NCBI GenBank assembly: GCA_026770705.1 | Contig: JANJGN010000011.1 | Coordinates: forward strand, 113,584,001 to 113,648,000 | Source of the DNA: Isurus oxyrinchus | Taxonomy: Eukaryota | Direction of reading: 5' to 3' | Length of the DNA: 64,000 bases | Shown here: one piece after another, positions 1 through 60,455 of the stretch | Position numbering within the stretch: the first letter of the stretch is position 1 | Layout: the number at the start of each line of letters is the position of its first letter | The notes under the pieces: generated by a model | Database searches by the model: none | What the model was told of the DNA's origin: nothing | Seen by the model: the letters and a program-made list of their open reading frames with translations, nothing else | Translations under genes and position numbers: made by a program

Positions 1-61
1 GCAACATTTTGAGCGCTGACGTGCAGTCTCCGCCAACCGCACATCAGCCATAGTCTCTTGT

Positions 62-358
62 GCTGGAGGCATGAGTTCAAATCCCAACATAGCAGCTAGC
101 GAATTTAAATTCAGCGAAATAAATAATTCTGGAATAAAAAACTATTAATGGTGGCCATGAAGCTACTGCATTATATGTCTCACTCAAACCGATTAGAGAA
201 GAAAATCTGCTGCCCTTACTTGGTCTGGCCTGTATATTTCTCCAGACCCATAGCAATGTGTTGACTTGTAGCTGCCATCTGAAATGGTGTGGCAAACTAC
301 TCAGTTGTACAGAGATGGTCAATGAATGCTGGCCTTGCCAGTGAATTAATTTTTAAAA
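62..358 (+). mobile_element. tRNA-derived SINE (Deu-core-like), 5'-eroded
   Basis: B-box gagttcaaatccc (~73-85); core 'ggtctggcct...ctccagacccatagcaatgtg...ctgaaatgg...actcagttg'; 3' tail 'aatgctggccttgccag' shared with the local LINE. Confidence 0.75.
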
Positions 359-9977: not shown

Positions 9978-10320
9978 TAGAGACAATTGTCTTTTGACTC
10001 CCTTACTAAACAAAAATAGAATTAAAGATTATCAGATGTTTGTTAAGAAAACTATGGGCAGAATCGTCCCAAACATGCACTAAATGTGATAGCAGGCGGG
10101 AAAAAGAATAGTTTACCCAACGGCCGGAATGGCAGCTTTTCATGCTGTATCATCCCAATCTCGCCTCATTAATAATGCATTCCTGAGAAACATATCGTTT
10201 TGATGGTGGGCAGACGCTCATTTGCCCACCACGCCATCACTGCGCCAGGCGCCATATTTAAAGTACAGCCACGCGAACACCTTTCAGTGCTTCCAGCCCC
10301 AGGGCTTCTGCAAAGAAGAC

Positions 10321-10545
10321 ATGGCCCTGAAAGGCAGGAAGACTGCAGCTCCCCGGTTTAATGACGCATTCCTTGGACGCAGTGAGGCTCACCATGATGT
10401 CCTCTACCCCGACTCTGGGGAACGGGCAGCAACATCCAATCCAGCATGGAAGGCGGTGGCAGCGATGGTCAGCATCAATGCCCTGCAAAAGAGGACAACC
10501 ACCCAGTTCCATAAAAGGATGAATGATCTCCTCCGTTCTGCCAGG
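10321..10545 (+). pseudogene. Harbinger Myb/SANT-like DNA-binding protein, exon 1
   Basis: MALKGRKTAAPRFNDAFL...AWKAVAAMVS...RTTTQFHKRMNDLLRSAR followed by donor gtaagt at 10546; TATA-like atatttaaa ~10254; downstream exons absent. Confidence 0.8.
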
Positions 10546-10630
10546 GTAAGTCACTCTTCTCATCAGTCTCAACTCACACTCATAAACCCATTATACATCC
10601 ACAGGGCCCTCACTCACTGCCGGTTCAAAG

Positions 10631-11990
10631 AATTGGTGGAGGTACCAGGGGATCCACCACCTCACCCGTCAACGCCCCTGATGCTCACCACCAATGCCCT
10701 GTTCTCTTCCAGGTCATCGTCTCTAGCTTCCAACCCCTCCCCTCTATTGAGTATGGGGGGCTGGTTCGGAGCTGCCAGTCGGCTCCACCTCCACCTCGAT
10801 CCCACCCCCAGGATCAAGGCCAGAGGGGTCCTCTCTGCTCTCCTTGTGGGGCTCTGGGTCAGAGGGCATCAGCAGCTCAGAGACCCACTCCACCTCAGGC
10901 ACCAGATCGCCAGGCAAATCCAGAAATGTTCCGAGCCCAAAACAGTAGCGCCCAGTGCCAAAGGCCGAGCTGCGGGGTCCTCCTCGCAAATGACACCCAA
11001 TGACCCAGCAATTGGGAATCACCGCGGTCCCTCAGTGGGCCAGATGACATCTCAGGGGTACAAGGCGGGTGAGGGTGGGGTGTTACATCAAGGGCGACAC
11101 CCTTACCGACCCCCGAGGGGCCCTGCTCAGGGGATCGCGGCAAAGAATCAGGAAGTTTGGCTTCCCCAGGAGGGCGGTGCAAGGACTTACGGGATGGAGC
11201 TGCCTCCAGGTGGCCAGTCTTTCTCTGTGACTTCTTCCGGTGCCTGGGTCTGAAACAAGCTCTGGATTTTGCATATACAGGCCAGGTTGCATTTATGCTT
11301 GTCCCTCAACTATAGATCTACTTCTGAAAGAATAAATTAGCTTGTGAAGAAAATTAACCACTCAGACCACCCATTTTTATCCGAGATGGGAGCAGCTGTC
11401 AGTGGCACCACCCCTTGCGCGGAGGAAGTTGGAGCGGTGGCGGGGGGAGGAGCGGTGGTGCCAACCGCGGCCACCTGGATGGTGCTGGGGGCCTTGGAGG
11501 GGGGCAGTCCTTCTCCATGTGCCCCACCCCCTTGCAGGCATGGCATCGCGTGGCAGACAAAAACCTGGCACCGGAAGGAGTGCACATGACGAAGGCTCGG
11601 GTCCTTTAGGCCAAGCGGGATTGGTGCCCCCACCCCAACATCACCTCCCCCAGATGACAAAAATGAGGGGGGAGGAACTCATCAGGGACAAGATAATATG
11701 AGCCTCTGAGCGATGGCCTCCAGAGGGCCCACTGCCAGGAATATCCCGTCCACCATGAGCCCCTTTTCGAGGGCGAGGCGCACTGCCCACTCAGTTTTAA
11801 AAAGAATACAGCCTTCCTGTGCATTTTTGAGGCTGTGACAACGGCTAAGGGGCTGACAACCCCAGCCAGAGCGTTGATGCAGGCTCCAATGGTCATTGTG
11901 GGCTGGGTGTAGCACTTCACCTCAAGCTGTCAGGTCAGCAATTTAAATGATGATGGGGCTTCGGGAGATTCAGGGGCCTAAGAGGCCTCC
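10631..11990 (-). pseudogene. Tx1-like ORF1 (gag-like, zinc knuckle), frameshifted
   Basis: KCYTQPTMTIGACINALAGVVSPLAVVTASKMHRKAVFFLK / TEWAVRLALEKGLMVDGIFLAVGPLEAIAQRLILS; CCHC knuckle CHACKGVGHMEKDCP (~11500-11545); GEVVDPLVPPP at the break. Confidence 0.75.
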
Positions 11991-12589
11991 ACCCCCGTAT
12001 AGGTGGCCTGGGTGGTACCCACCACCAATAAAGATGGTGCTGCCTTTGGTGAGTGCTAAACGCACCACGATACAGACAAAATACACAGAACAAACAGAGT
12101 GAATGGAGAGTAGGAGCAGGGGGAGTGAGAGGGAGAGGAGGAGGCAGAGACAGAGAGATCAAAGGCAGGCAGGTGCCCTGATGTTTCTTGAGGTGGGTGG
12201 TGGAGAGGTGGTCCGATGTTCAGCAGGGGTAGGAGTCTTCCCCTGGGCAGCTAGCACTGCCCAGGCACAGTTCAGGAATGATGGTATCGGTCCTTGGGTG
12301 CAGCTGGCAGCATGTGCTAGCCCATGCGAGGCAAGGGAGGACAGAGTGGGGTGCAGGTTTTCTTTTCCCCTTTTAACACTCAGTCAGTCACTGTCCTCCC
12401 TTCTGAAGAAAACATGTCTTCCTTCCCTCCCCCTGCAGGAAATCAATCAGTTGCAGTTCTTTTCTTCCCCAGGCACCTACCTCTGGCACAGCAAATGTCC
12501 TCCTCCTCTGGCTGAAGTTATGTCCTCCCCACCTCCGGCTTTTTCCAGGCTCCCACTCCCAGGCTCTACAGGCCTTGCAAGGCCCCACC

Positions 12590-13680
12590 CTGCAGCAGCA
12601 GCAGGGCTGTAGCAACAGCAGCAGCAACAGGCTGTAGGGGCCCCCAGAAAGGAAAATTCCAACTCCATGAACTCCTTTTCTCCTCCATATGTGCAGTAGT
12701 CTTCCCCTTCCAGGTGAAGGTGAGCAAACAAAAACTCCAAAGTAGTAACAGCAGCAGCAGAGGAAAGCAGCATCCAGAGCAGTAGCACAGCAACAGCCAG
12801 TGCCAGTACCACAGCCAGCACTAGTGCCACAGCCAGCAGCAGCAGCACAGCCAGCTCCAGCACCAGCTACAGCACCAGCACCAGCACCAGCACCACAGCC
12901 AGCTCTAGCACCAGCAACAGCACCACAGCCAGCACCAGCACCACAGCCAACACCAGCACCACAGCCAGCTCCAGCACCAGCAACAGCACCAGCACCAGCA
13001 CCAGCAACAGACCAGAGCCAGCATCAGCACCAGCATCAGTACCACAGCCAGCTCCAGCACCAGCACCAGCAACAGCACCACAGCCAGCTCCAGCACAGCA
13101 ACAGCACCAGTGCCAGCACCAACAACAGACCAGAGCCAGCATCAGCACCAGCAACAGCACCACGGCCAGTTCCAGCACAGCAACAGCACCAGTGCCAGCA
13201 ACAGACCAGAGCCAGCATCAGCACCAGCAACAGCACCACAGCCAGCTCCAGCACAGCAACAGCACCAGTGCCAGCACAAGCAACAGCACCAGAGCCAGCA
13301 TCAGCACTAGCATCAGCACCACGGCCAGTTCCAGCACCAGCAACAGCACCACAGCCAGCACCAGCACCACAGCCAGCGCCAGCACCACAGCCAGCTCCAG
13401 CACCAGCAACAGTACCAGCACCAGCAGCAGCAACAGCACCAGCGCCAGCACCACAGCCAGCACCACAGCCAGCACCAGCAACAGCACCAGCACCAGCAAC
13501 AGTACCAGCACCAGCAGCAGCAACAGCACCAGCGCCAGCACCACAGCCAGCACCAGCAACAACACCAGCACCACAGCCAGCAACAGCATCAGCGCCACAG
13601 CCAGCAACAGCACCAGCACCAGCGCCACAGCCAGCACCAGCACCAGCACCAGTGCACAGCAACAGCACCAGCACCAGCTC
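12590..13680. repeat. ~1.1 kb low-complexity tandem array of cagcac/cagcaa/cacagc units with higher-order blocks
   Basis: Seen directly; recurring blocks such as 'acagaccagagccagcatcagcaccagc' and 'agtaccagcaccagcagcagcaacagcaccagcgccagc'. Confidence 0.95.
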
Positions 13681-14283
13681 CCACTCAGACAGGAATGAGC
13701 TGCACTTGAGCCCAATCAGAAAGCACAGCCTGGGCACAGGTATTAATCACTTATACATAATGTTCACTATTGTCAATAAACTCCCAAGAATTTCTCCCTG
13801 CCTATGCTCCTCATTCTGATGAATAGTGGTCATGTCACTCAGATTTAAAACCTTAGCTCTTGCATAAGATAAAGGCAGGTGTGTCAATCCAGGGCCTCTT
13901 CCCTGTGCTTTGTGCAGTCTTCAGACCAAAGTGATGGGACTGCCTCACATTCTCTGGAAATATTACTGATGCCTGAACTTTAATGGTGCTTGTCATTGTT
14001 GCCAGAATGTAGTGAGCAGGCGTCACAGAGTTCCATCATTCTCTCTGGGGCTAGCCCCAATCTCATCAGCATCTATGACTAGTGACACTGTGCTCCTGAA
14101 GGGGTCAGTTGCTGAATGCTGACAAAAGATCAGGTGCAAGCAAGCTGCCCTCAGCCAGACAGGAGTCAGACATTCTCAGAGGGTATGTGAAGATCTATGG
14201 AGTGTCCTCACTTCACGTCGTCATCATCATCCTCCTGGAATTGAGCAAGAGGCCTCTGCTGCCTCTCCATGACAAGAGCCTTA

Positions 14284-15555
14284 TCACAGATGCAATGTGA
14301 AGATCTGTGTTGTCTCTTCATTGCATGCCATCATCATCCTCCACAAATCTAGCAGCTGTGAGGGCCTCCCGAGCGTGCCTGCCTCATCTGGCCAGTTCGA
14401 TGGCCTCTTTGCCGTCATCATCGCCTTCGAGGACCTCTTCACCCTCATCCCTTTTGACATCCACTTCATCAGAGGAGACTTCCAGCTCCTCCTCAGCCAC
14501 TCCTCCTCAGCTAGCTCCTCTGCCCGTTGCAGCACCAGGTTGTAAAGGGCACAGCAGCTGATGATGATGCAAGACACCCTCTGTGGTCTACATTGCGGGG
14601 CTCCACCAGACTGGTCCAGGCAGCGGAACCTCATCTTTAGCATCCTGATGGTTTGCCCTACCAAGGTGTGGGTTGCAGCATGAACCTTATTGTACTCTGC
14701 TGCAGTCTGAGACTGCCACATGGCTGTCATCAGCCATGTCCTCTGTGGGTAGCCCTTGTCCCTGAGGAGCCCTCCCTGCAGCCTCTGTGAACCCTGGAAG
14801 ATATCCGGAATCTGAGACCAACTGAGAATGTAGGAGCCATGGACACTCCCTGGGAGCCATGCACAGACCTGTAGATGCAGACCTGGTGGTCGCACATTCA
14901 GCGAATGGGAGCACTCACAGTTGACACAGTTGACCGCTTGTTGTAACGAAGCTCTGAGCGAGTGAGTGAGTGCAGTCAATGGCACCCTGAACCTGTCGGA
15001 AATCTGAGCTCTCGGCAAATCCCAGCACTCTTGCATTCTGGCTGTCCTGGTCCCAGGCGAAACGCACCAATTGTATGCCTTCGTGAAGACAGCATCCGTG
15101 ACCTCATGGATGCATTGGTGGGTGGAGGTTTGTGATATTCCACAGACATAACCTGTGGAGCCCTGAAGGGAGCCACTGATATACAAATTGAGTGCCGCTG
15201 TCATTTTCGTGGTCGTGGGCAGTGGGTGCCGTCCATGTCCCCGTGGTACCAAATCCTGCAGCAGCTGGCAGATGTAAATGACCGGTCCCCTAGACGTGGG
15301 CAGTCTTTGGCGACACTGGTTCTCAGTCATCTGCAGGAATGAAAGGCAACGTTTATAGACCCTGGGTCTAGCTAGGCGTGGAACAGCGATGGCTCGCTGT
15401 GGTTCTTCAGCAGTGTGTGCGGGATCCCCAGCCGCCCCTTCTTCTTGAGGGTGTTGCTCCTCCACCTGCCCAGCCAGACATCTCTGTTACTCTCTTCTCT
15501 TTTGTCTCTGTTTTCTGTACACCACAAGGCATACAGCGAGTACACCAGGCTCCAT
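14284..15555 (-). pseudogene. HARBI1-like Harbinger transposase, inactivated
   Basis: RPRVYK..LSFLQMTE; ALNLYISGSLQG..GISQ; VQGAIDCTH out of frame (~14965-14992); PGSVHGS; LRDKGYP; YNKVHAATHTLVGQTI.MLKMRFRCLD with the catalytic E changed to G; ATG at 15555 preceded by a polypyrimidine-cag acceptor at ~15574-15597. Confidence 0.9.
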
Positions 15556-19690: not shown

Positions 19691-20079
19691 TCATCATTTC
19701 AGGTGGTCATATTTCTTTCAAGTGTGATGTCAAATGCACGATTTGAGTAACGGCAAATACTTCAGAGTAGATGATGATTGACAATAAGAAGGACAATATG
19801 AGCTGCCAAAAGCCTCTAAAAAGAACTTCCTGACTGCAAGAATAGGAAAGGCTGTGCTGCGATGCAAGAATTCACTGCATGAGTAATGGTAGCAATTAGA
19901 TTGCCAGTTTCATTGTGGTACATGGCAACACTTAATAATTTTCACTATCATGCACCTCACAAGTCTTCCTAGAAGAGTGTGATATGGAAGAGAGATATAG
20001 ACTTCATTAGATAGGTGCCTTTGCAATGTTGGATTGAGTACAAATATCACAATGTGTTGATATATGCATGTTCTTCAAC

Positions 20080-22575
20080 ATCTGAACCCTATGAAGTCTC
20101 ATGGCATCAAGTCAAACATGGGCAGGGAAACATTCTGCTGATTATCATGTATAACCCCCATCAGCTGATGAATCAGTGCTCCTCCATGTTGAACACCACT
20201 TGGAGGAAGCACTGAGGATGTCAAGGGTACAGAATGTACTCTAAGTGGGGAACTTCAATGTCCATCACCAAGAGTGACTCAGTAGCACCACTACAGACCA
20301 AACTGGCCAATTCCTAAAGGACATAGCTGCTAGACTGGGTCTGTGGCAGGTGGTGAGGGAACCAACAAGAGGGAAAAACATTTTTCACTTCATCCTCACC
20401 AACCTGCCTGCCACAGATGCATCAGTCCATGACAGCATTGGCAGGAGTGACCACCACACAGTCCCTGTGAAGACAAAGTCCCTTCTCCACATTGAGGACA
20501 ACCTCCATCACATTGTGCAGCACTACCACCATGCTAAATATAATAGATTTCGAATTGATCTAGTAACTCAAGACTGGGCAACCATGAGGTGCTGTGGGGC
20601 AGCAGCAGAATTGTACTCAACCACAATCTGTAACCTCATGGCCCGGCATATCCTCCACTCTACCATTACCACCAAGCCAGGAGGTGGACCTTGGTTCAAT
20701 GAAGACCACAGGAGCGCAGGAGCGCATGCCAGGAGCAGCATTAGGCATATCGAAAAATGAGTTGTCAACCTAGTGAAGCTATAACACAGGACTTCTTGCC
20801 TGCTAAACAGCAAAAGCAGCAAGTGATAGACAGAGGTGAGCAATTTCACAACAACGGATCAGATCTAAACTCTTCAGCCCTACCACACCTGGTCTTAAAT
20901 GGTGGCGGGTAATTAAACAACTCACTGGAGGAGGATGCTCCAAATATCCCCATCCTCAATGATGGACGAGCCCAGCACATCAGTGCAAAAGAGAAGGCTG
21001 AAACATTTGCCTTCATTCAGCCATAAGTGCCGAATGGGTGATCTATCTTGGCCTTCTCCAGAAGTCCCCAGCATCACAGATGCCAGTCTTCAGAAAATCC
21101 AATTCACTCCATGTGATATCAAGAAACGGCTGAAGACACTAGATGTTGCAAAGGCTATGAGACCTGATAATATTCTGGCATAGTACTGAAGACTTCTGCT
21201 CCAGTACTTGCCATTGCTCTGCCAAGCTGTCCCAGTTACAATACCAGCCTCTACCCGGCTATGTGGGAAATTGCCCAGGTATGTCCTATGCATGAAAATT
21301 CAACCCAATCAATTACCGCCCTGTCAGTCTACTCTCGATCATCAGCAAAGTGATAGAAGAGATCATTGACGGTGCTGTCAGGTTCACTTGCTTAGTAATA
21401 ATGTGCTCAATGATGCTCAGTTTGGGTTCCGCCAGGGTCACTCAGCTCCTGACCTTACAACAGTCTTGGTTCAAACATGGACAAAAGAGCTGAACTCAGT
21501 AGGTGAGGTGAGAGTGATTGCACTTGACATCAAGGCAGCATTTGACCAAGTTTGGCATCAAGGAGAAAACTCTCCACCAGTTGGAGTCATTCCTAGCAGA
21601 AAGGAAGATGGTTGTGGTTATTGGAGGTCAATCATCTCAGTTCCAGGGCATCATTGCAGGAGTTTCTCAGGGTAATGTCCTTGACGCAGCCATCTTCAGC
21701 TGCTTCATCAATGACCTTCCTTCCATCATAAGGGCAGAAGTGGGGATGTTCGCCGATGATTGCATAATGTTCAGCACCATTCGTAACTCCTCAGACAATA
21801 TCCAGGTTTGGGCTGACAAGTGGCCAGTAACATTCACACCATATAAGTGCCAGGTAATGACCATCTCCAACAAGAGAGCATCTAATCATCGCCCCTTGAC
21901 ATTCAATGGCATTACCATCACTGAATCCCCCACTATCAATATCCAGGGGGTTACCATTCACTAGAAACTAACTGGACTAGCCATATAAATACTGTGACTA
22001 CAAGTGCAGGTCAGAGGCTAGGAACCCTGTGGTGAATAACTCACATCCTGCCTCCCCAAATTCTGTCCACCAAGGCACAAGTCAGGAGTGTGATGCAATC
22101 CTTGCTTGGATGAGTGCAGCTCCAACAACATTCAAGTAGCATGACACCATACAGGACAAAACAACCCCCTTGCTTGGCATCCCATCCACAAGTATTCACT
22201 CCCATCCACCTCTTTAACTCAGTGGTAGCAGTGTGTACCATGTACAAGATGCACTGCAGGAACCTTCCAAACCTACAACTGCTACAATCTAGAAGGACAA
22301 GTATAGCAGATGCATGGGAACACCAGCACATGGAAGTTCCCCTCCAAGCCACACACTATCCTGACTTGGAAATATATCACCGTTCCTTCATTGACGCTGG
22401 ATCAAAATCCTGGAATTCCCTCCGTAACAGTACTATGGCTACTGTACTGTACTGTACACCACATGGACTGCAGCGGTTCAAGAAGGCAGCTCACCACCAT
22501 CTTCTCAAGGACAATGAGATATGGGCGTTAAATGCTGGTCTAGCCAGTGATGCCTACATCCCATGAAAGAATATT
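20080..22575 (+). mobile_element. 5'-truncated LINE of the dominant family (APE part plus RT), disrupted
   Basis: GNFNVHH, SDHH, QFGFRQGHSAPDL, ALDIKAAFD, GMFADD, FKKAAHHHLLK, family tail. Confidence 0.92.
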
Positions 22576-23309
22576 TAAATCTTCCTACATGAATTTGTGC
22601 AGAATAAGGCAACTTGTACTCTTCCCAAAGAATCTGTCTCAGCTCCAATAACAAAGAATCTTTCCCTTATTGTAACAGTGTCATCCTTTTGAAATGTTCA
22701 CACCTGGTATTCTGTTACCCCTCTGAGTGAGACATCTGATTTAACTGTACTGGTTTAGAGGCAACTTGATGTTGTGGGCCAATAGCTGGATTGGAGCCAA
22801 CCAAGGTTTTTTCAGATATGACCCTCATTCCCAACAGCGGATGCCTTTACCCTGTCAATCTAGGACGCATTTGAATTTACGTTCCAATACTAAGAAGCCA
22901 TTGTTTATTTGTACAAATCCCCTTGTTTAGAGCCACTTTCAATGTTCTCAATCATGGCCTTTGTAGCAAATAAGCATTTCCATATCATCAGTCAGTGATC
23001 TTTGTTTGCTTTGTCATGTATGTTTCCATGGCTATTGAGATTTAAGTCATCCTTTCAAGATAAGAAACTGTTCATACTACATTTGCTTTTTTTAAAATTC
23101 ATTCATAGCATATGGATAGAGCTCATAGTCAGTGTTTCCTGTTCATTCCTCAATGCACTTCGGAAGGTAGTGGTGTGTCACCTTCTTGAGCCATTGTATA
23201 TTTTATCACCAGATTTTTTTTCATTTTCTATTCTTTTTAATTTTGGTTTCCCAGTGCATTTCATATAGCTTGGCAGCCTTCTGTCTTGTAAGACAATGGT
23301 TTGAGCCTT

Positions 23310-23830
23310 GGTGGCAAACTCTATGTTGAACATCACCTGGTGTGACTCAGGAGTCCCATTCTTGCATGGCAGCCTCAGCTGCATTTGCTGCAGCTGAAGA
23401 CAATGGGTTGACAAGGTGCAGGATTCACTGGCCTCTGTTTTTTCTAGGCCCTTTTCTTGGCCATCTGAGCTTTTTGTTTCTTTTCACTTCTTCCAATGGT
23501 CCTCCAAACAGTCAGCCTCCAGAGATCACAGTCTTCAATGACTGCCTCCCAGTGTCATTGTTAATTTCCGCCATCTTCATATCTCGCTTGCAGGTTGCCC
23601 TTGTAGCGGAACATGGACATTCAGCAGGTTGAGACCCAGTGGCCAGTTCACCATACAGAAGGACTTTAGGTATAGACCCATCATCCATCTGACGTACATG
23701 GCTGGGCCAGCATAGGCATCATTGCAATGAGTAATGAGTATATGCTGATGGATTTAGCATGCTCCAGGACCTCTGAGTTGGTGACCTTGTCCTACCAAGA
23801 GATGCTGAAGGTAGATCTGAGACAGATGTA
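23310..23830 (-). mobile_element. RTE-clade LINE 3' fragment
   Basis: Minus strand reads WAQPCT/HV..M.DGSIPKVLLYGELATG..P...CKRD, typical of RTE C-termini. Confidence 0.7.
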
Positions 23831-23879
23831 TTGAGAACTCCTATGGCTGCACCTTCTCAACTATATATCATTGTGCCAC

Positions 23880-24140
23880 AGCCTCTGATTGGTCTTTCCT
23901 GTAGCAGGACAGTATATACCCAGAGATTGTGGCGGAGGAGCCTGGGACATTGACTGGAAGGAATCATTCGATGAGTATGACTATGCAAGTCTGTTGCTTG
24001 ATTATTCTGTGGAACAACTCTACCAATTTTGACACAAAGCCCCAGGTGTTAGTGAGGAGGACTTTGCAGGGTTTACTGGCCTGAGTGTGCCATTGCCCTG
24101 CGTGGTCAATGCTGGGTCATCCTTCCAGTTTTATCCTTAC
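23880..24140 (-). mobile_element. 5' part (linker plus APE start) of the dominant LINE, old copy
   Basis: Reverse complement matches 37750-38000 (caaagtcctcctcactaacacctgggg; gaccc/agcattgacc linker). Confidence 0.7.
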
Positions 24141-24554: not shown

Positions 24555-24874
24555 TGTAATATATCTGATATGTAAGTCACCTTTAAGACAAGTGTTGCAA
24601 TGTAAAATCACACGATCTTAATACCCAATAGCAGAATAGTGCAGGCTACCACTGTGGGAGAGTCTTAAGTTAGACACTGAAGAGTGAAGACAGAGTTATG
24701 AGTTGTGAGCACATAAGCGTAGCTGCTGAGTTTAGTTTGTAAATAATCAATATGTTTTTATTCTAACAACGATCTCCTGATGCTCTCTGTCTCTGTACTG
24801 ACTCAGTCAGCCTGAATTACGCATGCAACATGGATCCTTTAGCTCCAACAAACCAAAGGGTACTGGATCCAACA
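24555..24874 (+). repeat. 5' LTR of Gypsy 1
   Basis: Direct repeat of 28351-28669. Confidence 0.9.
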
Positions 24875-26688: not shown

Positions 26689-27000
26689 CTTTTTTTTATT
26701 CATTTACAGGATGTGGGCTTCACTAGCTGGGCCAGCATTTATTGTCCATCCCTAGCTCAGTGGGTCTGAAATCACATGTAGGCCAGACCAGGTAAGGACA
26801 GATTTCCTTCCCTAAAGGGGACCTGTTGGATTTTTACAGCAATGTTTCATGGTCATCATTAGACTTTTAATTCCAGATTTTTATTGAATTCAAATTCCAT
26901 CATCTGCTGTGGTAGGATTTGAATCCAGGTCCCCAGAGCATTACCCTGAGTCTCTGGATTATTAGTCCAGTGACAATGCCACTATGCCATCACCTCCCCC
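26689..27000 (-). mobile_element. tRNA/Deu-like SINE inserted in Gypsy 1 RT
   Basis: Head at the right end (reverse complement of tggcatagtgg and ggattcaaatcc), poly-T at the left end; splits RT LYQYN.LP|FGISSA. Confidence 0.88.
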
Positions 27001-34539: not shown

Positions 34540-35056
34540 TAAAAATCCACTTATGTGATTTGGGCATCGCTGGCTAGGCCAGCATTTATTGCCCATCCCT
34601 AATTGCCCTTGTTCAGAGGGCATTTAAGAGTAAACCACATTGTTGTGGATCTGGAGCCACATGTAGGCCAGACCAGGTAAGGATGGTAGATTTCCTTCCC
34701 TAAAGGACATCAGTGAACCAGATGGGTTTTTACGACAATCGACAATGGTTTCATGGTAACCATCAAACTTTTAATGGAAATGTTGGGCAGATCAAAATTT
34801 ACTCACCTGGGTAACTGCACAACTGACCCCCAATCACCCCCTGACCCCTCAACTACCACCCTAACCACCAACCTGATTACAACCTTGATTACCTCTCCCA
34901 ACTATGTTCCCAGCCTGCCTAACACTTTGACCCAATCTGACTACTCTCCCAAACTGACTACCATGGTGGGATTTGAGCCCAGGTCCCCCAGAGCGTAACC
35001 CTGGGTCTACTAGATTACTAGTTCAGTGGGCAATATCACTATACCAGTGCCTCCTC
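34540..35056 (-). mobile_element. tRNA/Deu-like SINE with a ~180 bp C-rich internal insertion
   Basis: Tail and core at 34540-34772, head at 34960-35056, unrelated sequence between. Confidence 0.82.
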
Positions 35057-37111: not shown

Positions 37112-37344
37112 CAGAATTCAGTTAATAAATCTGGAATATAAAATGGTGACCATAAAACTTGTTGTGAAGACCCATCTAGTTCACTAATGCCCTTTAGGGA
37201 AGGAAATCTGCTATCCTTACATGGTCTGGCTTACATATGACTTCAGACCCACAGCAACGTGGTTGACTCGGAAATGTTCAATTCAAGAGCAACCAACACT
37301 AACTTTGTCAGCAACGTCCGCATCCCATGAAAGAATTTTTAAAA
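37112..37344 (+). mobile_element. 5'-truncated tRNA/Deu-like SINE
   Basis: Core 'gttcactaatgccctttagggaaggaaatctg...ggtctggc...cagacccacagcaacgtggttgactc' plus tail catcccatgaaagaa. Confidence 0.8.
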
Positions 37345-37414
37345 AGTGGGGATGTTCGCTGATGATTGCACAGTAATCAGTACCATTTGCAACTCCTCAG
37401 ATAAGAGGAGGTGA

Positions 37415-37490
37415 TGGCATAGCGGTATTGATGCTGAACTAGTAATCCAGAGACCCAGGGAAGTGCTCTGGGGACCTGGGTTTGAATCCC
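37415..37490 (+). promoter_or_regulatory. Pol III type-2 internal promoter (A and B boxes) in a tRNA-like head
   Basis: A-box tggcatagcgg 37415-37425; anticodon-like arm ctgaa-ctagtaa-tccag (AGT); B-box ggtttgaatccc 37479-37490. Confidence 0.75.
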
Positions 37491-37827
37491 ACCGTGGCAG
37501 ATGGTGGAATTTGAATTCAATAAAAACCTGGAATTAAAGTCTAATGATGACCACGAAACCATTGTCAATTGCTGTAAAAATAACCCAACTGGTTCACTAA
37601 TGTCATTTAGGGAAGGAAATCTTCGCCCTTACCTGGTCTGACCTACATGTAACTCCAGACTCACAGCAATGTGGTTCACTCTTAAATGCCCTCCGAAATG
37701 GCCTAGCAAACCACTCAGTTGTAACAAACTGCTACAAAGTCACAAAAAAAAGAATGAAATGGGATGGACCACCTGGCATCGACCTAGGCACCGGAAATGG
37801 CAATTGCAGCCCTGTTGACCCTATAAA

Positions 37828-40575
37828 GTCCTTCTTACTAACATCTGGGGGGCTAGTGTGAAAATTGGGAGAGCTGTCTCACAGACTAGTCAAGCAACAG
37901 CCTGAGATAGTCATCCTCCACGAATCATACCTTACAGATAATGTCCCAGACTCCACCATCACCACATCTGGGAATGTTCTGTCCCATCGGCAGGACAGGT
38001 CCAGCAGAGGTGGTGGCAGCACAGTGTGATATACAGTTGGGAGGCAGTTGCTCTGGGAGTCCTCAACATTGACTCCGGACCCCATGGCATCATGTCAAAC
38101 ATGGGCAAGGAAACATCCTACTGATTACCAAGTACTGCCCTCCCTCAGCTGATGAATCAGTACTCCTCCATGTTGAACATCACTTAGAGGAAGCACTGTG
38201 AGTGGCAAGGGCACAGAATGTACTCTGGGTGGGGGACTTCAATGTCCATCACCAAGTGTGACTCAGTAGCACCACTACTGACTGAATTGGCTGAGTCCTA
38301 AATGATATAGCTGCTAGATTGGGTCTGCGACAGGTGGTGAAGGAACCAACAAGAGGGAAAAACATACTTGACCTCATCCTCACCATGCCTGCCACAGATG
38401 CATCTGCTCATGACAGTATCAGTAGGAGTGACCACTGCACAGTCTTTGTGGAGACAAAGTCCCGCCTTCACATTGAGGATACCGTCCATCATGTCGATGA
38501 CACTACCACTGAAATAGATTTCGAACAGATCTAGTATCCATGAGGCACTGTGGACCATCAGCAGCAGCAGAATTGTACTCGAACACAATCTGTAACCTGA
38601 TGGCCTGGCATATCACTCACTCTACCATAACCATCAAGCTAGGGGATCAACACTGGTTCAATGTACAGTGCAGGAGGGCATGCTAGGAACAGCACTAGGC
38701 ATACCTAAAAATGAGGTGCCAACCTGGTGAAGCTATAACACAGGACTACTTGCATGCCAAAAGCATTAGCAACAAATGATAGACAGAGCTAAGCGATCCC
38801 ATAACCAATGGATCAAATCTAAGCGCTGCAGTCCTGCCATATCCAGTTGTGAATGGTGGTGGACAATTAAACGTCTCACTGGAGGGGGATGCTCGACAAA
38901 TAACCACATCCTCAATGATGGAGGAGCCAAGCACAGCAGTGCCAAAGATAAGGCTGAAGCATTCGCAAGAATCTTCAGCCAGAAGTGGCGAGAGGATGAT
39001 CTATCTCAGAGGTCGCCAGCATCACAGATGCTAGTCCTCAGCCAATTCGATACACTTCACACGATATCAAGAAATGGCTGAAGACACTGAATACTGCAAG
39101 GGCTATGGGCCTTGACAATATTCCAGCAATAGCACTGAAGACTTGTGCTCCAGAACTTGCCACACCCCCGAGCCAAGTTGTTCCAGTACAGCTACAATGC
39201 TGGCATCTACCCAGCTATTAGAAAATTGCCCTGGTATGTCCTGTACATGAAAAGCGGGACAAATCCATCCCAGCTAATTGCTGCCCCATCAGTCTACTCT
39301 CAATCATCAGTAAAGTAATGGAAGGGGTCAGCAACAGTGCTGTCAAGTGGCACTTATTTAGCAATAACCTGTTCACTGATGCCCAGTTTGGGTTCCGCCA
39401 TTGCCACTCAGCTCCTGACCTCATTGCAGCCTTGGTTCAAACATGGACAAAAGAGCTGAACTCCCGAAGTGAGGTGAGAGTGACTGCACTTGACATCAAG
39501 GCAGCATTTGACTGAGTGTGGCATCAAGGAGCCCTAGCAAAACTGGAGTCAATGGGAATCAGGGGGAAACTCTCCGCTGATTGCAGTCATACCTAGCACA
39601 AAGGAAGATGGTTGTGGTTGTTGGAGGTCAGTCATCTCAGCTCCAGGACATCACTGCAGGAGTTCCTCAGGATAGTGTCCTAGGCCCGATCATCTTCGGC
39701 TGCTTCATCAATGACTACCCTTCCATCATAAGGGCTGCTTCATCAATGACTACCCTTCCATCATAAGGGCAGAAGTGGGGAAGTTCGTTGATGATTGCAC
39801 AATATTCAGCACCATTCGTAACTCCTCAGATACTGAAGCAGTCCATGTCCAAATGCAGCAAGATCTGGACCTTATCCAGGCTTAGGCTGACAAGTAACAT
39901 TCGCGCCACACAAGTGTCATCTCTAACAAGAGAGAATCCAACCATTGTCCCTTGATGTTCAATAGAATTACCATCACTCAGTCCCCCACTATCAACATCC
40001 TGGGGGTTACCATTGACCAGAACTGAACTGGACTAGCCATATAAATACTGTGGCTACAACAGCAGGTTAAAGGCTAGGAATCGTGCAACACGTAACTCAC
40101 GTCTTGACTCCCCAAAGTTTGTCCACCACCTACAAGGCACAAGTCAGGAGTGTGATGGAATACTCCCCACTTGCCTGGATGAGTGCAGCTCCCACAACAC
40201 TGAAGAAGCTGGACACCGTCCAGGACAAGGCAGCCTACTTGATTGGCACCAAATCCACAAACATTCACTCCCTCCACCACCGACGCACAGTAGGAGCAGT
40301 GTGTACCATTATACAAGATGCACTGCAGGAATTCACCAAGGTTCCTTAGACAGCATCTTCCAAACCCACGAAGGACAAGGGCAGCAGATAGATGGGAATT
40401 CCACCATGTCCAAGTCACTCACCATCCTGACTTGGAAATATATCTCTGTTCCTTCACTGTTGCTGGATCAAAATCCTGGAACTCCCTCCTTAACAGCTCT
40501 GCGTGTGTACCTACACCACATGGACTGCAGCGGTTCAAGAAGGCAGCTCACCACCACATTCTCAAGGGCAACTAG
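37828..40575 (+). pseudogene. LINE ORF2: AP endonuclease plus reverse transcriptase, with stops and frameshifts
   Basis: VLLTNIWG, QQPEIVILHESYL, WVGDFNVHH, SDHCTV, QFGFR, ALDIKAAFD, GVPQDSVLGP, FVDD, SLHHRRTV, FKKAAHHHILKGN*. Confidence 0.9.
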
Positions 40576-41569
40576 GGATGAGCAATAAATGCTGGCCCAG
40601 CCAGCGAAGCCCACATCCCGCGCATGAATAGAAAAAATGACAATGAGGCAGTCCATGCCTGCATGCAGCAAGCCTTGGACAACATTCAGGCTGAGGCTGA
40701 CAGGTGGCAAGTAATGTTCACACTACACAAGGGCCAGGCAATGACCATCTCCAACAAGAAAGAATCTAAGTGCCTGCTTGTTTAATGGCATTACCATTGT
40801 TGATACCCTACCATCAACATCCTGGAGGTTACCGTTAACCAGAAACTTAATACACCAGCTGTATAAATGTTGTGGCTACAAGAACATGTCAGAAGCTGGG
40901 AATTCTGTGATGAGTAAATCACCTCTTGACTGCCCAAAGACTATCCACCATCTACGAGGCATTAGTCAGGGGTACGATGGAATACATCCCATTAGCCTGG
41001 ATGAGTGGAGCTTTAGCAACACTCAAAATGCTCAAGACTATCCAGGACTAAGCAGCCCACTTGATCAGCACCCCTTCAACCACTTTAAATATTCACTTCC
41101 TCCACCACTGATGCACGGTGGTAGCACTGTGTACCATCTATAAGATGCATTGCAGCAATTCACCAAGCTCCCTTAACAGCACCTTCCAATCCAGTTACTT
41201 TTACCACTTAGAAGGGCAAGGGCAGCAGATACATGGGAACACAACTACATGAATGTTCTCATGCAAGACAGGCACCATCCTGACTCAGAACTATATTGCC
41301 ATCTCTTCACTGTCACTGGGTCAAATACCTCCATCCCCAACAGCACTATGGTTGTACATGCATCACATGCACTACAGCAGTTCAAGGAGACAGCTCATCG
41401 CCACTATCTACAGGGCAATTATGGATGGACAAAAAATGCTGACCTTGTCAGTGACGCTTATATCCCATGAATTAATTTAAAAGAAAAGGACTTCAAAGCA
41501 TACACCACTAAGGGAATGGGAGCAAGTAGCCACAGAGATCAATTCAAAGAGTCTGGCCCCAAAGGCCTG

Positions 41570-51285: not shown

Positions 51286-52440
51286 TTTATGTAAAAACGG
51301 TAACAGCCCCTGTTGTAGATAATGGCCAGTGAAACACAACAAATCTGAAAAATAGACTGTGATACACCAAATTGTTTAATGGGTTATCCCTAGGAAGCTT
51401 TTAGCCCATAGAGAATCACAATGAAAAGAACCATCTTCTTTAGAGGCAGTATTCCCATTATTCAGTGTTTCTGCCACAGTTTGTTGTCAAAGTGGTGGAG
51501 TGGTTAAAATATGCGTAAAGCTATGCACATCACAAAATATGAATATTAGTGCCTGATGGCGTGGATTTCACACCTAAACAAAATTGCTTGTTAAACTAAA
51601 TGCCAAAAGTGCTTGAGCATACGTGCTTAATGAGGCAATAAAGACTGAAATATGAAATATGATGAAATATTATTGAATTGGTTATTAGACCATTCCTAGA
51701 ATTGTAGGAAGGCTACAGCAGAGAGGGATGTCATTTGGCCTGCCGTGTACATGCTGGCTCTCTGCCCGAGCAACTCAGCTAGACCCACATCCTGTCTCTT
51801 CCCCCCATAGACCTGCGTTCTTTTTTCTTTTTCAGGTGTTTTCTTTATTCACAGACAAGGCAGAATTTATTGTCCATCCCTAATTGCCCTTGAGAAGGTG
51901 GTGAGCATGTGGTTCATGTAGGCCCACTGTGCTGTTAGATAAGGAATTCAAGGGATTTTACTCAGTGGCATTGAAGGAAAAGTGATATAGTTCCAAGTTA
52001 GGATTGTGAGTGGCATGGAGGGGAAATTGCAGACGGCAGTTGCCCCTTGCCGTTGTCCTTCTAGGTGGGAGTTTTGAAGGTGCAGTCAAAGGAGCCTTGG
52101 CGAGGTGCTGCAGTTCACCTTGTAGATGGTACACACCACATCAGTGATTAAAGGAGTGAACACAATGTGGTGCCAATCAAGTGGGCTGCTTTGTCCTGGT
52201 GGTGTCGAGCTTCTTGAGGTTGCACTTATCTGGACAAGTGGGGAGTATTCAATCACATCTTGTGCCTTGTGGAACGATTTGTGGAGTTATTCATCACAGA
52301 ATTCCCAGCTTCTAATTTGCTTAGTATTTATATGGCTGGTCCAGTTAATCTGCTTGATTGGCACTGGTAATGCTATTGGATGTTAAGGGTAGATGGTCAG
52401 TTTCTTTCTATTTGGAAAAGGTCATTGCCCGGCACTTGTA

Positions 52441-52796
52441 TTTTTTTTTAAATTTGTTCATGGGATGTGGACATCACTGGCTAGGCCAGCATTTGTTGCT
52501 CATCCCTAATTGCCCTTGTTCAGGAGGATTTAAGAGTCAACCACATTGCTGTGGTTCTGGAGTTGCATGTAAGAGCAAGGTAAGGACAGATTTCCTTCCT
52601 TACAGGGCATTGGTGAACCAGATGAGTTTTTAATAACGATCGGCAAGGGTTTCATGGTCATCATCAGACTTTTAACACCAGATTTTTGTTGGATTCAAAT
52701 TTCACCATCTGCTGTGGGACTTGAACCTGGGCCCCCAGGGGATGAGTCTCTGGAATACTAATCCAGTGACAATGCCACTATGACACCTCCTCCCCT
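52441..52796 (-). mobile_element. Full-length tRNA/Deu-like SINE
   Basis: Head at the right end (reverse complement of tcatagtggc and ggttcaagtccc), core, LINE-type tail, poly-T. Confidence 0.88.
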
Positions 52797-53872
52797 CAAT
52801 GTTACTTACCACTTATGAGCCCATGCTTGAGTGTGGAAATGGTCCTGCGGCATTGCAAACATGGACTTCTTCAGTAAAGTGAGGCATTGTGATGGTAGTG
52901 AATGATATGTTATCATCAGCAAACGTCCCTACTTCTGACCTTATGTTGCAGGGAAGATCATTGCTAAAGCAACTAAGGATAGTTGGGCCTAGGATACAGT
53001 CCTGAGGAACTACTATACTGGTGCCTTGGGCATAAGATGAGTGGCATCTAACAACCACAACCATATTCCTATGTGCTAGGTATGATTCCAACCAGCAGAG
53101 AGTTTTCCCCCCTGATTCCCATTGACTTCATTTTGCTCGGGTTGCAATGTTGCCTTGATGATAAAGGCTTTCACTTTCACCACTAGAATTCACCTCTTTT
53201 GTCCATGCTTGGACTATGTCTGTAACGAGGTCTGGAGCTGCATGACCCTGGCAGAATCTAAACTGAGTATCAGTGAGCAGGGTTTTGTGGAGCAACTGCC
53301 ACTTAACAGCATTGTCAACAACAACTTATATACAACTTATATCTCTTTGTTAATGATTGAGAGTAGGCTGATGGAATGGTGTAGTGTTCAATAATTCAGT
53401 TGTTCTGTGTTTGATTATATTAGCCTGTTGCCTGATCTATGTTCACTGTGCTTGATTGATTAAGCCTGGATGTAGCCTCTGGGAGCTAAAGTAAACAGAA
53501 GCTTCCATAAAGACCTGAGAAGTCTGAGCTGCAACATATGGTGTGGAAATACTGCGATTGCTGAGATATTTTAAATAGTGTAAATAAAGCTGTTGTAGAT
53601 TTAGAACTAGTGTCATCTCTGCATTGCTCTGAGGTAGATAAAATGTATATAATGTACAACAAAACAGTGAATACACTACAAAAGTAGTGACAAGGGTGTG
53701 AAAGTTTAACTTCACCAGCTTCAGCAGTGTTTTTTTATCACTGGGGCGGGGTGGGGGGGGGGGAGTCTTCCAAAGTCATGGGATTGATAGATTTTGAGAT
53801 TCAAGACCTACTTGCTGGTTATGGGGGATAGACAGTCCAGATGTAGCAGTGATCCTCAAGAAGGCAATACTC

Positions 53873-58217: not shown

Positions 58218-59240
58218 TCTGCATTGCCCTGAAGTAAATCAGATAGATAAAATATGCAACAAACCAGCAAAAATGTAACAGATGGGAATTGGCCAGATTG
58301 GATCCCAGAATGAAAAACCAGTAAGTACTGGGAAATAAAAATACTGCTCCAAATAGGTCTTGTATACCTTAAAATGGAACAGCAGTAAAAACTGGTGTTC
58401 TTCCTTCTGGGGTTTCTTCTGTTTTTTATGGACAGGACATGCCTGTGCAATTTTCCATATTGTCAGGTAGATGCCACTGTTGTAGCTGTATTGAAGCAGC
58501 TTGGTTAGGGGTGCAGCTAGTTCTGGAGCACAAGTCTTCAGTACTACAGCCAGGATATTCATAGCATTCATAGCCTTTGCTATATCCAATGCCTTCAACT
58601 GTTTCTCAATATCACATAGCATGAATTGAATTGTTTGAAGACTGGAACCTCAGTTGCTGGAGACCTTAGGAAGAGGCTAAGATGAATCATCCATTCAGCA
58701 CTTCTGGCTGACAATGGTTGCAAATGCTTTAGCCTTGTCTTTTGCTCTGAAGTGCTGGGCTCTTCCATTATTGAGGATGGAGATGTTTTTGGAGCCTCTG
58801 TTTTATTGTCCATCACCATTCATGATTCGATGTGGCAGAACTGCAAATCTTCGATCTGATCCTTTGGTTGTGCTTTTGCTTAGCTTTGTCTATTGCATAC
58901 TGCTTCTACCTCTTAGCATGCATGTAGTTCCTGTATTGTAGCTTCACCTGGTTAGCACCTTATTTCTAGGTATGCTGATGCTGCTTCAAGCATGTTCTGG
59001 TGTGCTTCTCATTGAACCAGACTTGGTCTTTTGGCTTGATTGTAATTGTAATGTGGGGGATATGATGGGCTATGAGGTTACAGATTGTGATTGAATACAA
59101 TTCTGCTGCAGCTAATGGCCCACAGCACCTCACTGATGCCAATTTTTATTAGATCTGTTTATTAGATTTATCCCATTTAGCACAGAGGTAGTGCCACACA
59201 ACACGAGGTAGGATGTCTTTAGTGTGGTGATGAGACCATG

Positions 59241-60455
59241 GGGATAATCATCCCAGATTTGCACGAAATGCAGTAGTGGGTGGGAAAAGGGATGTTTTAC
59301 CCACGGCCACAATGGCGGCTTTTCACGCCCTATCATCCCAATCCTGTCTTATTAATTATGCAGCCTCAGGAAATATGCCATCTCTCTGGTGGGCAGCCTC
59401 TGAATTGCCCACATGCCATTGCCGCACCGTCTCCTCACTCCCACTGCCATATCTAAACTGTCCAGGACTGTTCCAGTGAAGACATGGTCCTGAAAGCCAA
59501 GAAGAGTACAGTGACCTGTCACTGGAATGCCTTTCGGAGGCCCGCTGTGATGTCCTCCACCCCCACTCTGGCTGCAAGAGGTCCAGCAATCTCACCATTC
59601 CAGCTTGGGAGATGATGATAGTGGTGATCAGTGTCATTGCTGCACAGAAGACATTGGCCACCCAGTGCAGAAAGACAATGAAGGATCTCATCCGTGCCAC
59701 CAGAGTAAGACAGCCATCTCATCACTCTAAACTCACACACTAACAAGCCCATCACGTATTCACTGGCATCTCACTCACTGCCAGCTCAAGGGACACTCTC
59801 TCATACACCCTCACATCTCCATCTGGCCTCATCTCCACTCGATACTGCCTCCTCAGCCCTCACCATTTTGAGGCCACTTGCACAGGTTAACATGTACCTA
59901 CTCCCCAAAACACACCCTGGGATAACCCCCTTCCCCAGTACAGCCCTCGCCATGTAGCTTATTCCCTTGCCTGAGACCAATTCTCCCCCTTCCCCAAGCA
60001 AGCTCTAGCCCTGAAGCTGTTGAAAAGCCACTCCCGCCTTATGGCTGGTCTGGTAGGTATAGGCCTGCCCATAAGACCCCTAAAAGTGATGTGCTGCCTG
60101 CAAAGCCTGGTGCTGATGACCGCTAGTGCTGTCAATGCCAGGTGGGCAAACAAACCTCAAAGTTCCATGCCAAGTGCAGCTCGCTGGGTGCATGTCACTA
60201 ATGTAAAGTTGTGAAATGCTGATGTACTCAGATGTGGGGGTGATGATTCTGGCAAGCTGAGCTTATATGTGATGCATTACAATGAAGTTCCTGACATGTG
60301 ACAATGGGAAACAATGGCCCACCATTGATGGGTGGAACGGACCAATTGCAAGCTGATTTCACGATTTCATGCAACTGATTTTTGGCCTTTCCGTCATGTT
60401 GTCCGCTCATGCCCACCATGACACCCGATGCCAGCAGGTACAGAAAACTTTGCCC
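59241..60455. mobile_element. Internally deleted (1.2 kb) relative of the Harbinger at 10056
   Basis: Ends gggataat / actttgccc; near-TSD atg/ttg; decayed Myb exon 59484-59705 with gtaaga donor; right part matches ~16490-16757. Confidence 0.85.

Follow-up and report, generated by a model that had tools for sequence, protein, structure and literature searches.

A shark LINE copy with a SINE-type 5' half upstream of a single APE-RT reading frame

In the 64-kb stretch of shark DNA analysed here (the window), we found SINE-type anatomy on a LINE at positions 37405-40638 (+). This is a single 3.2-kb insertion within an older LINE, flanked by a 5-bp target-site duplication (TSD), and it consists, from 5' to 3', of a tRNA-like head, a body of ~220 bp, a 104-bp linker, a broken APE-RT frame and a tail shared with SINEs. 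It is a dead but full-length copy. Our best explanation, which we put forward tentatively, is that it belongs to a shark family of single-ORF APE-RT non-LTR retrotransposons in which the SINE-type head and ~220-bp body would act as 5' UTR and internal promoter. Such a family, which is tentatively CR1/L2-group-like, may switch itself on in the same way as its SINE parasites.

The host sequence defined the limits of the insertion. The older LINE relative is present as part of its RT region on the left (37344-37404, +) and as a right part at 40644-41482 (+; K2P 0.28 to the element). Its left flank aligned with the element's own RT up to 39832 and its right flank from 39829, indicating a duplication of 4-5 bp, and this register overlap places the end of the element at 40638. 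The TSD reads gataa on the left (37400-37404, +), where the two host flanks share 4-5 nt of RT register, and gacaa on the right (40639-40643, +), also in the host RT register. An earlier note on this DNA had described the host LINE as contiguous across the insertion, with this as a possible TSD, and the 3.2-kb unit as inserted in one piece; the preserved RT register and the duplicated bases bore out both statements. Like other LINEs, the element has no LTRs, an A-rich or simple 3' end, a short TSD and many 5'-truncated copies.

ORF2 occupies 37828-40575 (+), with APE at ~37828-38500, RT at ~39220-39920 and the stop codon at 40573-40575. Both domains scored above the Pfam cut-off (APE, PF14529, E 7e-11; RT, PF00078, E 1.6e-11); a PDB sequence search with the RT block gave 0 matches. 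APE precedes RT in one frame, as in LINEs, and in this copy the frame is broken by frameshifts and by 10 stops in 14 frame blocks. The earlier note had proposed looking for an intact ORF2, and none was seen. A 35-bp tandem duplication within RT (39698-39770, +) probably arose after insertion. The 423 nt available upstream of APE contain no ORF1, the longest sense stop-to-stop frame having 86 codons and no Pfam match. The absence of ORF1 noted earlier was therefore confirmed, but a one-ORF layout is not as rare as the note suggested, as the zebrafish L2-clade element ZfL2-2 likewise has ORF2 only and is retrotransposition-competent (excerpt of PMC4176376). The 3' UTR after the ORF2 stop (40573) is 62 nt long. 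The SINE-shared tail (40563-40638, +) comprises the last ORF2 codons, a stem-loop and an A-rich end; its fold was modest (z = -2.15, with 6 of 200 shuffles equally good), and a 3' stem-loop held in common with a partner SINE is a trait of the CR1/L2 group.

As the earlier note had read, the tRNA-derived head (37405-37500, +) carries an A-box at 37415-37425 and a B-box at 37479-37489, the former an exact match and the latter a match with one mismatch to the consensus. Between them lie an AGT loop (37441-37443) and a long variable arm. Across four head copies, 89.6% of 67 cells in the D-, anticodon-, long variable- and T-arms were paired, compared with 25-61% when the arms were slid; no two-sided covariation was detected in the arms of these four copies. 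The head is degenerate, since ARAGORN called 0 tRNAs, the head included, and no Rfam family reached its gathering score. The acceptor stem is degenerate as well and, in a by-eye reading, unpaired. A tRNA-like 5' end bearing A and B boxes is typical of SINE2 elements, which are also short and non-coding; the five free copies in the window are, whereas the 3.2-kb APE-RT element is not.

The body (37501-37723, +), which contains an ATG at 37669, is common to the free SINEs. Head and body together matched the five free SINEs of the window at 71-91%, in keeping with the earlier observation of a shared central core. K2P distances between head/body and SINEs (0.10-0.32) overlapped those between body and young LINE copies (0.14-0.20), with the host at 0.28. 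The free SINEs combine the first 293-319 nt of the element with its last ~76 nt. One (52446-52795, -) joins the 5' part up to 37697 to the tail at 40563; another (34548-35056, -) has its junction at 37697 too and is interrupted by an insert; a third (26690-26999, -) has internal deletions close to the junction. An older copy (58-345, +) retains the body to 37723 and then passes into the tail, and a 5'-truncated, internally deleted SINE (37114-37343, +) adjoins the host LINE on its upstream side. The label "Deu-like core" had to be dropped, and a SacSINE1 identity of the core found no support: two Deu/Nin motifs (PMC7245038 Fig. S4) occurred at chance level (2 and 1 matches in the window at 3 mismatches, none of them in the body), and a by-eye comparison was also negative. 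A motif of the 66-bp Meta domain gave 0 matches at 3 mismatches, and one 7-nt CORE motif (PMC5786205), searched as a single motif, was absent from 37405-37830.

Past ~37720-37723, the element continues through the linker (37724-37827, +) to the endonuclease N-terminus VLLTNIWG (V codon at 37828), much as the earlier note had described with a linker of ~105 bp. The linker has no counterpart in the free SINEs and recurs in other LINE copies (24138, -; 42278, -) as well as in the sequences P0008 and P0011. A tail scan over 37405-37830 was empty, so the claim that no SINE tail separates head from ORF stood. The linker does hold an A8 run (37744-51). We ruled this run out as a SINE poly-A because P0008 aligns through it.

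Outside support came from two gene-model proteins, P0008 and P0010, among four shark-type protein matches, so this evidence is at protein level only. Residues 230-277 of P0008, a Heterodontus francisci gene model, were collinear with 37672-37828. They span the body, the linker and the beginning of APE, and the alignment needs one frameshift, in the A-run, and one gap of 12 nt; APE comes next in the gene model. The junction score was 74, compared with a mean of 12 and a maximum of 28 in 100 shuffles and 4-11 for three free SINEs. The 16 residues just beyond the junction scored 21 by themselves, and 3 of 500 shuffles were equally high. P0008 represents a different copy, ~54% identical at the amino-acid level in the body portion. 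Residues 125-166 of P0010 aligned with 37609-37739 (score 64; shuffle maximum 15; SINEs 30-45) and are followed by APE; the alignment extends only ~6-15 nt beyond the longest SINE junction, and the body-APE link in P0010 may be a splice. P0011 begins with the linker (score 63; shuffle maximum 27). Both of the other sequences that are in register to or past the 5' end of the linker (P0008 and P0010) have the body. The tRNA head was observed in the 37405-40638 copy only and is not visible in the P0008 and P0010 proteins. The earlier note had raised the concern that the junction might occur at only one or a few loci; collinearity across it in P0008, and partly in P0010, argues that it is not confined to this one, and on these alignments the body-linker-APE junction is probably not a one-off.

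P0008 itself and P0011 were also the two matches among 840 candidates when we searched with a profile of the junction, and the APE protein search yielded 3 of 210 candidates. Searching proteins with the junction translated in frame with ORF2 gave 0 of 1 candidate, an HMMER search with an alternative open frame gave four unrelated repeat proteins, and a GTDB scan gave one weak bacterial locus among 95 candidates, with only 28 nt in common and no relevance here.

Within the 64-kb window, blastn and nhmmer found no second complete junction, and a profile of seven head/body pieces had no match upstream of six other LINE copies. These six copies have no alternative 5' end in common, and the conventional 5' UTR plus ORF1 upstream of the linker, the other contrary case raised earlier, was not found in the window. 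The 5' piece of a second near-full-length copy (23831-24138, -) contains the linker from ~37748 and the APE start, without a head; an inverted 3' piece (20072-22578, +; element 38060-40630) probably belongs to the same copy. We rejected a candidate for a decayed body lying 5' of the 42278 copy (score 170; 2 of 1000 random segments; 8 of 1000 dinucleotide shuffles; 0 of 5 SINEs), which was gone at stiffer gap costs. Weak matches at 16586 and 30923 were other repeats or chance.

For the favoured single-ORF family, we envisage that the A and B boxes would promote transcription by Pol III, starting at the first base and running along a sense strand without T4+ terminators. Translation of ORF2 would begin at the body's ATG (37669) or re-initiate once a short, overlapping frame further upstream has been read, two options that are not separable because the element copy and P0008 are one base apart in the A-run. 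Pol III RNA is uncapped, which hampers translation. ORF2p would bind the 3' stem-loop and insert the element by target-primed reverse transcription, leaving a short TSD, a mechanism taken from L2 work (excerpt of PMC4176376); stem-loop and TSD are both demonstrated in the element. The promoter would travel with each full-length copy. The free SINEs would use the ORF2p of the element and would be either deletion products of the LINE or donors of its head. Autonomy and Pol III transcription of the element are what we infer from this anatomy. Rather doubtful is the fuller proposal of a self-sufficient Pol III-transcribed family. Its 3.2-kb element would combine a tRNA promoter with a sense strand purged of terminators and with a single APE-RT ORF read from uncapped RNA, and its internal deletions would have led directly to a complete SINE family of sharks that takes head, body and tail alike from the LINE. 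If true, the element would amount to an autonomous SINE and supply the parent that a SINE body has so far lacked.

The 3.2-kb element has 0 sense-strand T4+ runs, with 6.0 expected from a mononucleotide shuffle (P0 0.0025) and 2.1-2.8 from triplet shuffles (P0 0.04-0.09). Twelve family segments (12,778 nt), which are not independent copies, had 4 such runs versus 15.2 expected, and 0 of 300 dinucleotide shuffles were as low. T4+ was the most depleted homopolymer class of the sense strand, C4+ (5/300) and G4+ (9/300) being mildly low. The deficit stems partly from low TT content (TT o/e 0.74), and a 541-nt RTE control also had 0 T4+. The terminator check suggested earlier came out clean for the element, yet the deficit is compatible with Pol III transcription, not diagnostic of it.

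The structural evidence (TSD insertion, K2P, P0008 and P0010) also fits the same autonomous single-ORF LINE family with RNA made by Pol II, either driven by a promoter located in the body or obtained through host read-through, with the head as a captured 5' UTR and the A/B boxes serving mainly the short SINE forms. The problem of translating uncapped RNA would then disappear, and the T-run deficit, not being diagnostic, would pose no obstacle. LINEs are generally Pol II-transcribed (PMC10886601; excerpt of PMC5786205), as are non-LTR elements, and Pol III elements are limited in length (PMC10886601). We nevertheless consider this reading unlikely: the A and B boxes are retained exactly at the 5' end, T4+ is depleted beyond any other homopolymer class, and the unpaired acceptor stem (by eye) argues against RNase P-type 5' processing.

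A SINE-LINE chimera could also have spread passively to many loci as a long Pol III transcript whose cargo is ORF2 and which a conventional master, sharing the tail and having its own 5' UTR and perhaps ORF1, mobilises in trans. Poor translation of uncapped RNA would suit this scenario, as does the finding that, of the three window copies extending as far as the APE start, two break off within the linker and have no body. No selection signal emerged from codon positions: differences between copies were equal across them, with no third-position excess, and 2:2 splits at third versus first/second positions numbered 17 versus 10/9, 10 versus 6/5 and 6 versus 7/6 in three trios. However, the window showed no alternative 5' end, the upstream flanks of the two linker-ending copies have nothing in common, the 5' end of one of these copies carries a TSD-like match (11/12) that is consistent with ordinary truncation, and the head-bearing copy falls in the young group that also holds the commonest truncated copies, all of which makes passive spread quite unlikely. 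Very improbable is a one-off at this locus, whether by a LINE-to-SINE RNA template switch, an accepted origin of chimeras (PMC5499810), or by nesting of a LINE in a SINE that lost its tail, because, although the window holds one complete junction and an A8 run lies near the join, the divergent P0008 crosses the junction in register, A-run included, and appears largely to refute it, with P0010 agreeing in part.

Single-ORF L2s and tRNA-bearing RTE elements are on record separately. ZfL2-2 resembles the shark element in having one ORF with EN and RT, no ORF1 and a 3' stem-loop recognised by ORF2p; it differs in its ~4.2-kb length and repeat-unit 5' UTR, and a tRNA head is unmentioned in the excerpt of PMC4176376. 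The nearest LINE precedent is RTE-1_DAn with its relatives, Repbase LINEs with tRNA-like sequence, which belong to the RTE clade and for which the excerpt of PMC5786205 reports no SINE partner with head, body and tail in common. In bipartite SINEs and non-autonomous LINEs (Bov-A/Bov-tA, RIME, Vingi derivatives), a short element derives from LINE 5' and 3' parts, as here, but the tRNA head is added on the SINE only (reported sources RTE, Ingi, Vingi and R2; excerpt of PMC5786205), whereas the long shark element itself has the head and the entire body. SacSINE1 and other DeuSINEs, with L2-2_CM, include a shark tRNA-headed SINE of similar size (copies <=463 bp) and LINE-shared tail (PMC5499810); SacSINE1 has a Deu domain, unlike the shark body, and is set apart by description. 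Other elasmobranch pairs of tRNA SINE and LINE partner are HE1 V-SINE/HER1 and CR1-x_CM (PMC3747384 table); the CR1-1/4/5/11_CM tails (PMC7245038 Fig. S5) were unlike the element tail by eye, and HE1 was compared by description only. TRIMp3 elements (Cassandra, Helenus, Ajax) are non-SINE retroelements with a small-RNA-derived Pol III promoter (PMC10886601), but these LTR elements are non-autonomous, measure 0.3-1.3 kb and have no coding capacity. Motif searches of paper texts and supplements found no printed sequence of the element's SINE or LINE, and the literature searched yielded no report of a single-ORF CR1/L2-group LINE with a SINE head and body as 5' UTR.

LINEs are usually set apart as coding Pol II elements and SINEs as parasites transcribed by Pol III, without coding capacity, whose only borrowing is the tail (PMC10886601; excerpt of PMC5786205), and the source of the SINE body has been termed enigmatic (excerpt of PMC5786205). 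A LINE family with an entire SINE 5' half blurs this split and, if true, would offer a concrete origin or fate for the SINE body and widen the formation of bipartite SINEs past the four clades named in that excerpt. The element offers a testable case of whether Pol III can make a 3-kb coding RNA and whether such RNA can be translated. Repeat masking would cut such copies into a SINE and a LINE fragment, concealing full-length elements in shark genomes.

The element starts at 37405 with a tRNA-like head containing an A-box at 37415 and a B-box at 37479 (motif matches in the element to the consensus for these boxes), together with D-, anticodon- (AGT, 37441–43), long variable- and T-arms. Arm pairing held in 89.6% of 67 cells across four head copies, compared with 25–61% when the partners were slid, for a structure drawn from the same sequences; we found no two-sided covariation in the arms among these four copies. 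Neither ARAGORN nor Rfam made a call on the head, which is therefore degenerate, though the boxes and arm pairing bear out its tRNA-like nature as described in the earlier note.

Five free SINEs in the window matched the head and body (body, 37501–37723): 58–345(+), 26690–26999(−), 34548–35056(−), 37114–37343(+) and 52446–52795(−), confirming that the head and core are those of the free SINEs. They depart from the 5' part of the element at 37697 (2 out of 5) or 37723 (1 out of 5), deletions blurring the point in 2 out of 5, and re-enter its tail at 40563–40580. The two junction types lie ~23–26 nt apart, and either could be derived from the other; the SINE may have come out of the LINE, or the LINE may have captured the SINE 5' half.

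The description of the core as Deu-like did not hold: with three mismatches allowed, two conserved Deu/Nin motifs gave 2 and 1 matches in the window, none of them in the body and no more than chance would give. The body did not resemble the Deu/Nin alignment published in Fig. S4 of PMC7245038, and a Meta motif is absent. Since SacSINE1 is described as Deu-bearing (accessible portion of PMC5499810) and Deu motifs are missing from the body, the present SINEs probably belong to a family other than SacSINE1; they are set apart by its description, and naming may change.

Beyond the body, a 104-bp linker (37724–37827) leads to VLLTNIWG at 37828, followed by APE and RT; ORF2 stops at 40573, ahead of a 62-nt 3' UTR with a modest stem-loop. 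ORF1 is absent, as originally reported: the region ahead of APE is 423 nt long and its longest sense frame 86 codons. The CR1/L2-group label given to the element is a tentative one, based on resemblance.

The element is flanked by an older related LINE (37344–37404 and 40644–41482; K2P host vs element, 0.28). Aligned to the RT of the element itself, the left flank ends at 39832 and the right flank starts at 39829, a 4–5 bp duplication. Head and body lie at K2P 0.10–0.32 from the SINEs, a range that overlaps with that of the body against three young LINE copies (0.14–0.20). Because of this duplication and overlap, the data fit arrival of head, body and LINE part as a single insertion; RT register across the flanks and the 4–5 bp TSD agree with the proposed one-piece insertion into a contiguous host LINE. 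With 10 stops in 14 frame blocks and a 35-bp duplication, the copy at 37405 is dead. The element (host, 37344–37404) and one free SINE (52420–52810) both sit in the RT-end region of older same-family LINEs, which may reflect density alone or target bias; the SINE at 37114–37343 adjoins the host LINE.

Copies of the junction outside the window were sought by protein searches, giving protein-level evidence. An APE query yielded 3 out of 210 candidates: two gene models of Heterodontus francisci and one from EukProt, each with pieces of the same LINE inside an unrelated gene. The H. francisci hits suggest a shark origin for the window. Residues 230–277 of P0008, an H. francisci immunoglobulin-domain model, match 37672–37828 codon by codon, interrupted by a single frameshift and a 12-nt gap; the alignment spans the body/linker boundary and an A8 run, and APE follows the junction in the same model. 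This alignment scored 74, against a shuffle maximum of 28 (n=100), and three free SINEs gave 4–11; the first 16 residues beyond the boundary scored 21, with 3 out of 500 shuffles as high. Nothing in the window credibly matched the non-repeat part of P0008, and its repeat part is ~54% identical to the element over the body, indicating that P0008 is a different copy. Another model, P0010, runs from 37609 in the body to about 37727–39 and then into APE, which is weaker evidence because its body extends hardly beyond the longest junction seen in the SINEs. P0009 is uninformative on the junction, its LINE content being confined to APE and later parts of ORF2. A junction profile yielded 2 out of 840 candidates, P0008 and P0011, the latter starting with the linker; other protein searches for the junction returned nothing relevant. 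The full join was thus seen in two independent copies (the element and P0008) and part of it in a third, the tRNA-like head at the present locus only. The structure is real, and it probably characterises the family and is not a one-off. The LINE pieces in P0008, P0009, P0010 and P0011, public shark-type models of an Ig-domain protein, CWC25, a CAND1-like and an RGL1-like protein, are probably annotation artefacts or exonisation.

Within the window, the complete body/linker junction occurs once; no repeat of it was found there. Two further LINE copies reach the APE start; both stop within the linker, one at ~37748 and the other at ~37796, and the sequences upstream of them show no match to the body or to one another. 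Pieces of the ~37748 copy cover element positions 37750–38075 and 38060–40630 on opposite strands (window 20072–24138), and each breakpoint shows short inverted similarity; they look like parts of one near-full-length copy, split by a ~3.75-kb inversion, with its 5' end at ~37748. Its 5' flank matches its 3' end at 11 out of 12 positions (equalled by 22 out of 20000 random 12-mers), which looks like a possible 12-bp TSD and thus ordinary truncation. A LINE 3' fragment that we take, by its motifs, to be RTE-like lies at the putative inversion breakpoint, 23290–23830(−).

In the way it works, the element is comparable to L2-type LINEs of the stringent kind that have a partner SINE. In the accessible portions of the sources, a single ORF is known in the L2 element ZfL2-2 (PMC4176376), a feature common to both, and RTE-1_DAn is a LINE noted, like the element, for a tRNA-like sequence (PMC5786205). 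The accessible portion of the latter paper also gives a systematic Repbase comparison finding LINE 5' parts in SINE bodies for RTE and Vingi only. No SINE-headed LINE of sharks was described in the papers searched, a largely open-access set, and the element may already be catalogued in Repbase or Dfam.

The 5' boxes, missing ORF1, shared tail and TSD are observed directly; promoter use, translation and autonomy we infer. The family would be autonomous and transcribed by Pol III from its own promoter, the leading but tentative reading, which falls somewhat short of even probability; that it is also the Pol III-driven parent of the SINE is doubtful. Sense-strand T4+ runs numbered 0 in the 3.2-kb element against 6.0 (mononucleotide) or 2.1–2.8 (triplet) expected, and 4 against 15.2 over 12 family segments, with the caveats that the copies are homologous and that runs of C and of G show a mild shortage too. 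The proposed terminator check was compatible with Pol III on the sense strand but not diagnostic: a short RTE control likewise had 0 and TT is low overall. Transcription of the same family by Pol II is unlikely. ATG 37669 lies in the body shared with the SINEs and in this copy reads into ORF2 in frame, bar one stop; its equivalent in P0008 leads into a different frame, so ORF2 would either start within the body or be preceded by a short upstream frame that overlaps it. Copy-to-copy differences are equal over codon positions, the pattern expected of one burst decaying neutrally, which says nothing on selection. Passive spread of a chimera is quite unlikely. A one-off event is very unlikely: in the recurrence check, P0008 (full junction) and P0010 (part) stand against it, whereas the lack of a second junction in the window points the other way.

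Over 37865–40570, C is favoured at the third position in codons with T beside T, or TAT/TCT (TTT/TTC 4/16, ATT/ATC 16/30, TAT/TAC 1/13), with CAT/CAC, AAT/AAC and GAT/GAC near even. Elsewhere in the window, a DDE_Tnp_4 transposase frame at 10051–11253(+) (E 8.6e-13) faces a second decayed frame at 14284–15486(−), with a 6-bp-period repeat at 12833–13678 between them; the 10051–15486 arrangement looks like a Harbinger/PIF-type DNA transposon. The segments 10051–10628 and 59235–59789 are 67% similar. Dispersed repeat pairs of the 190–320 bp, 69–84% identity class lie at 24555–24875/28351–28670, 60594–60864/63608–63880, 53386–54107/57747–58216 and 36538–36727/18801–18996.
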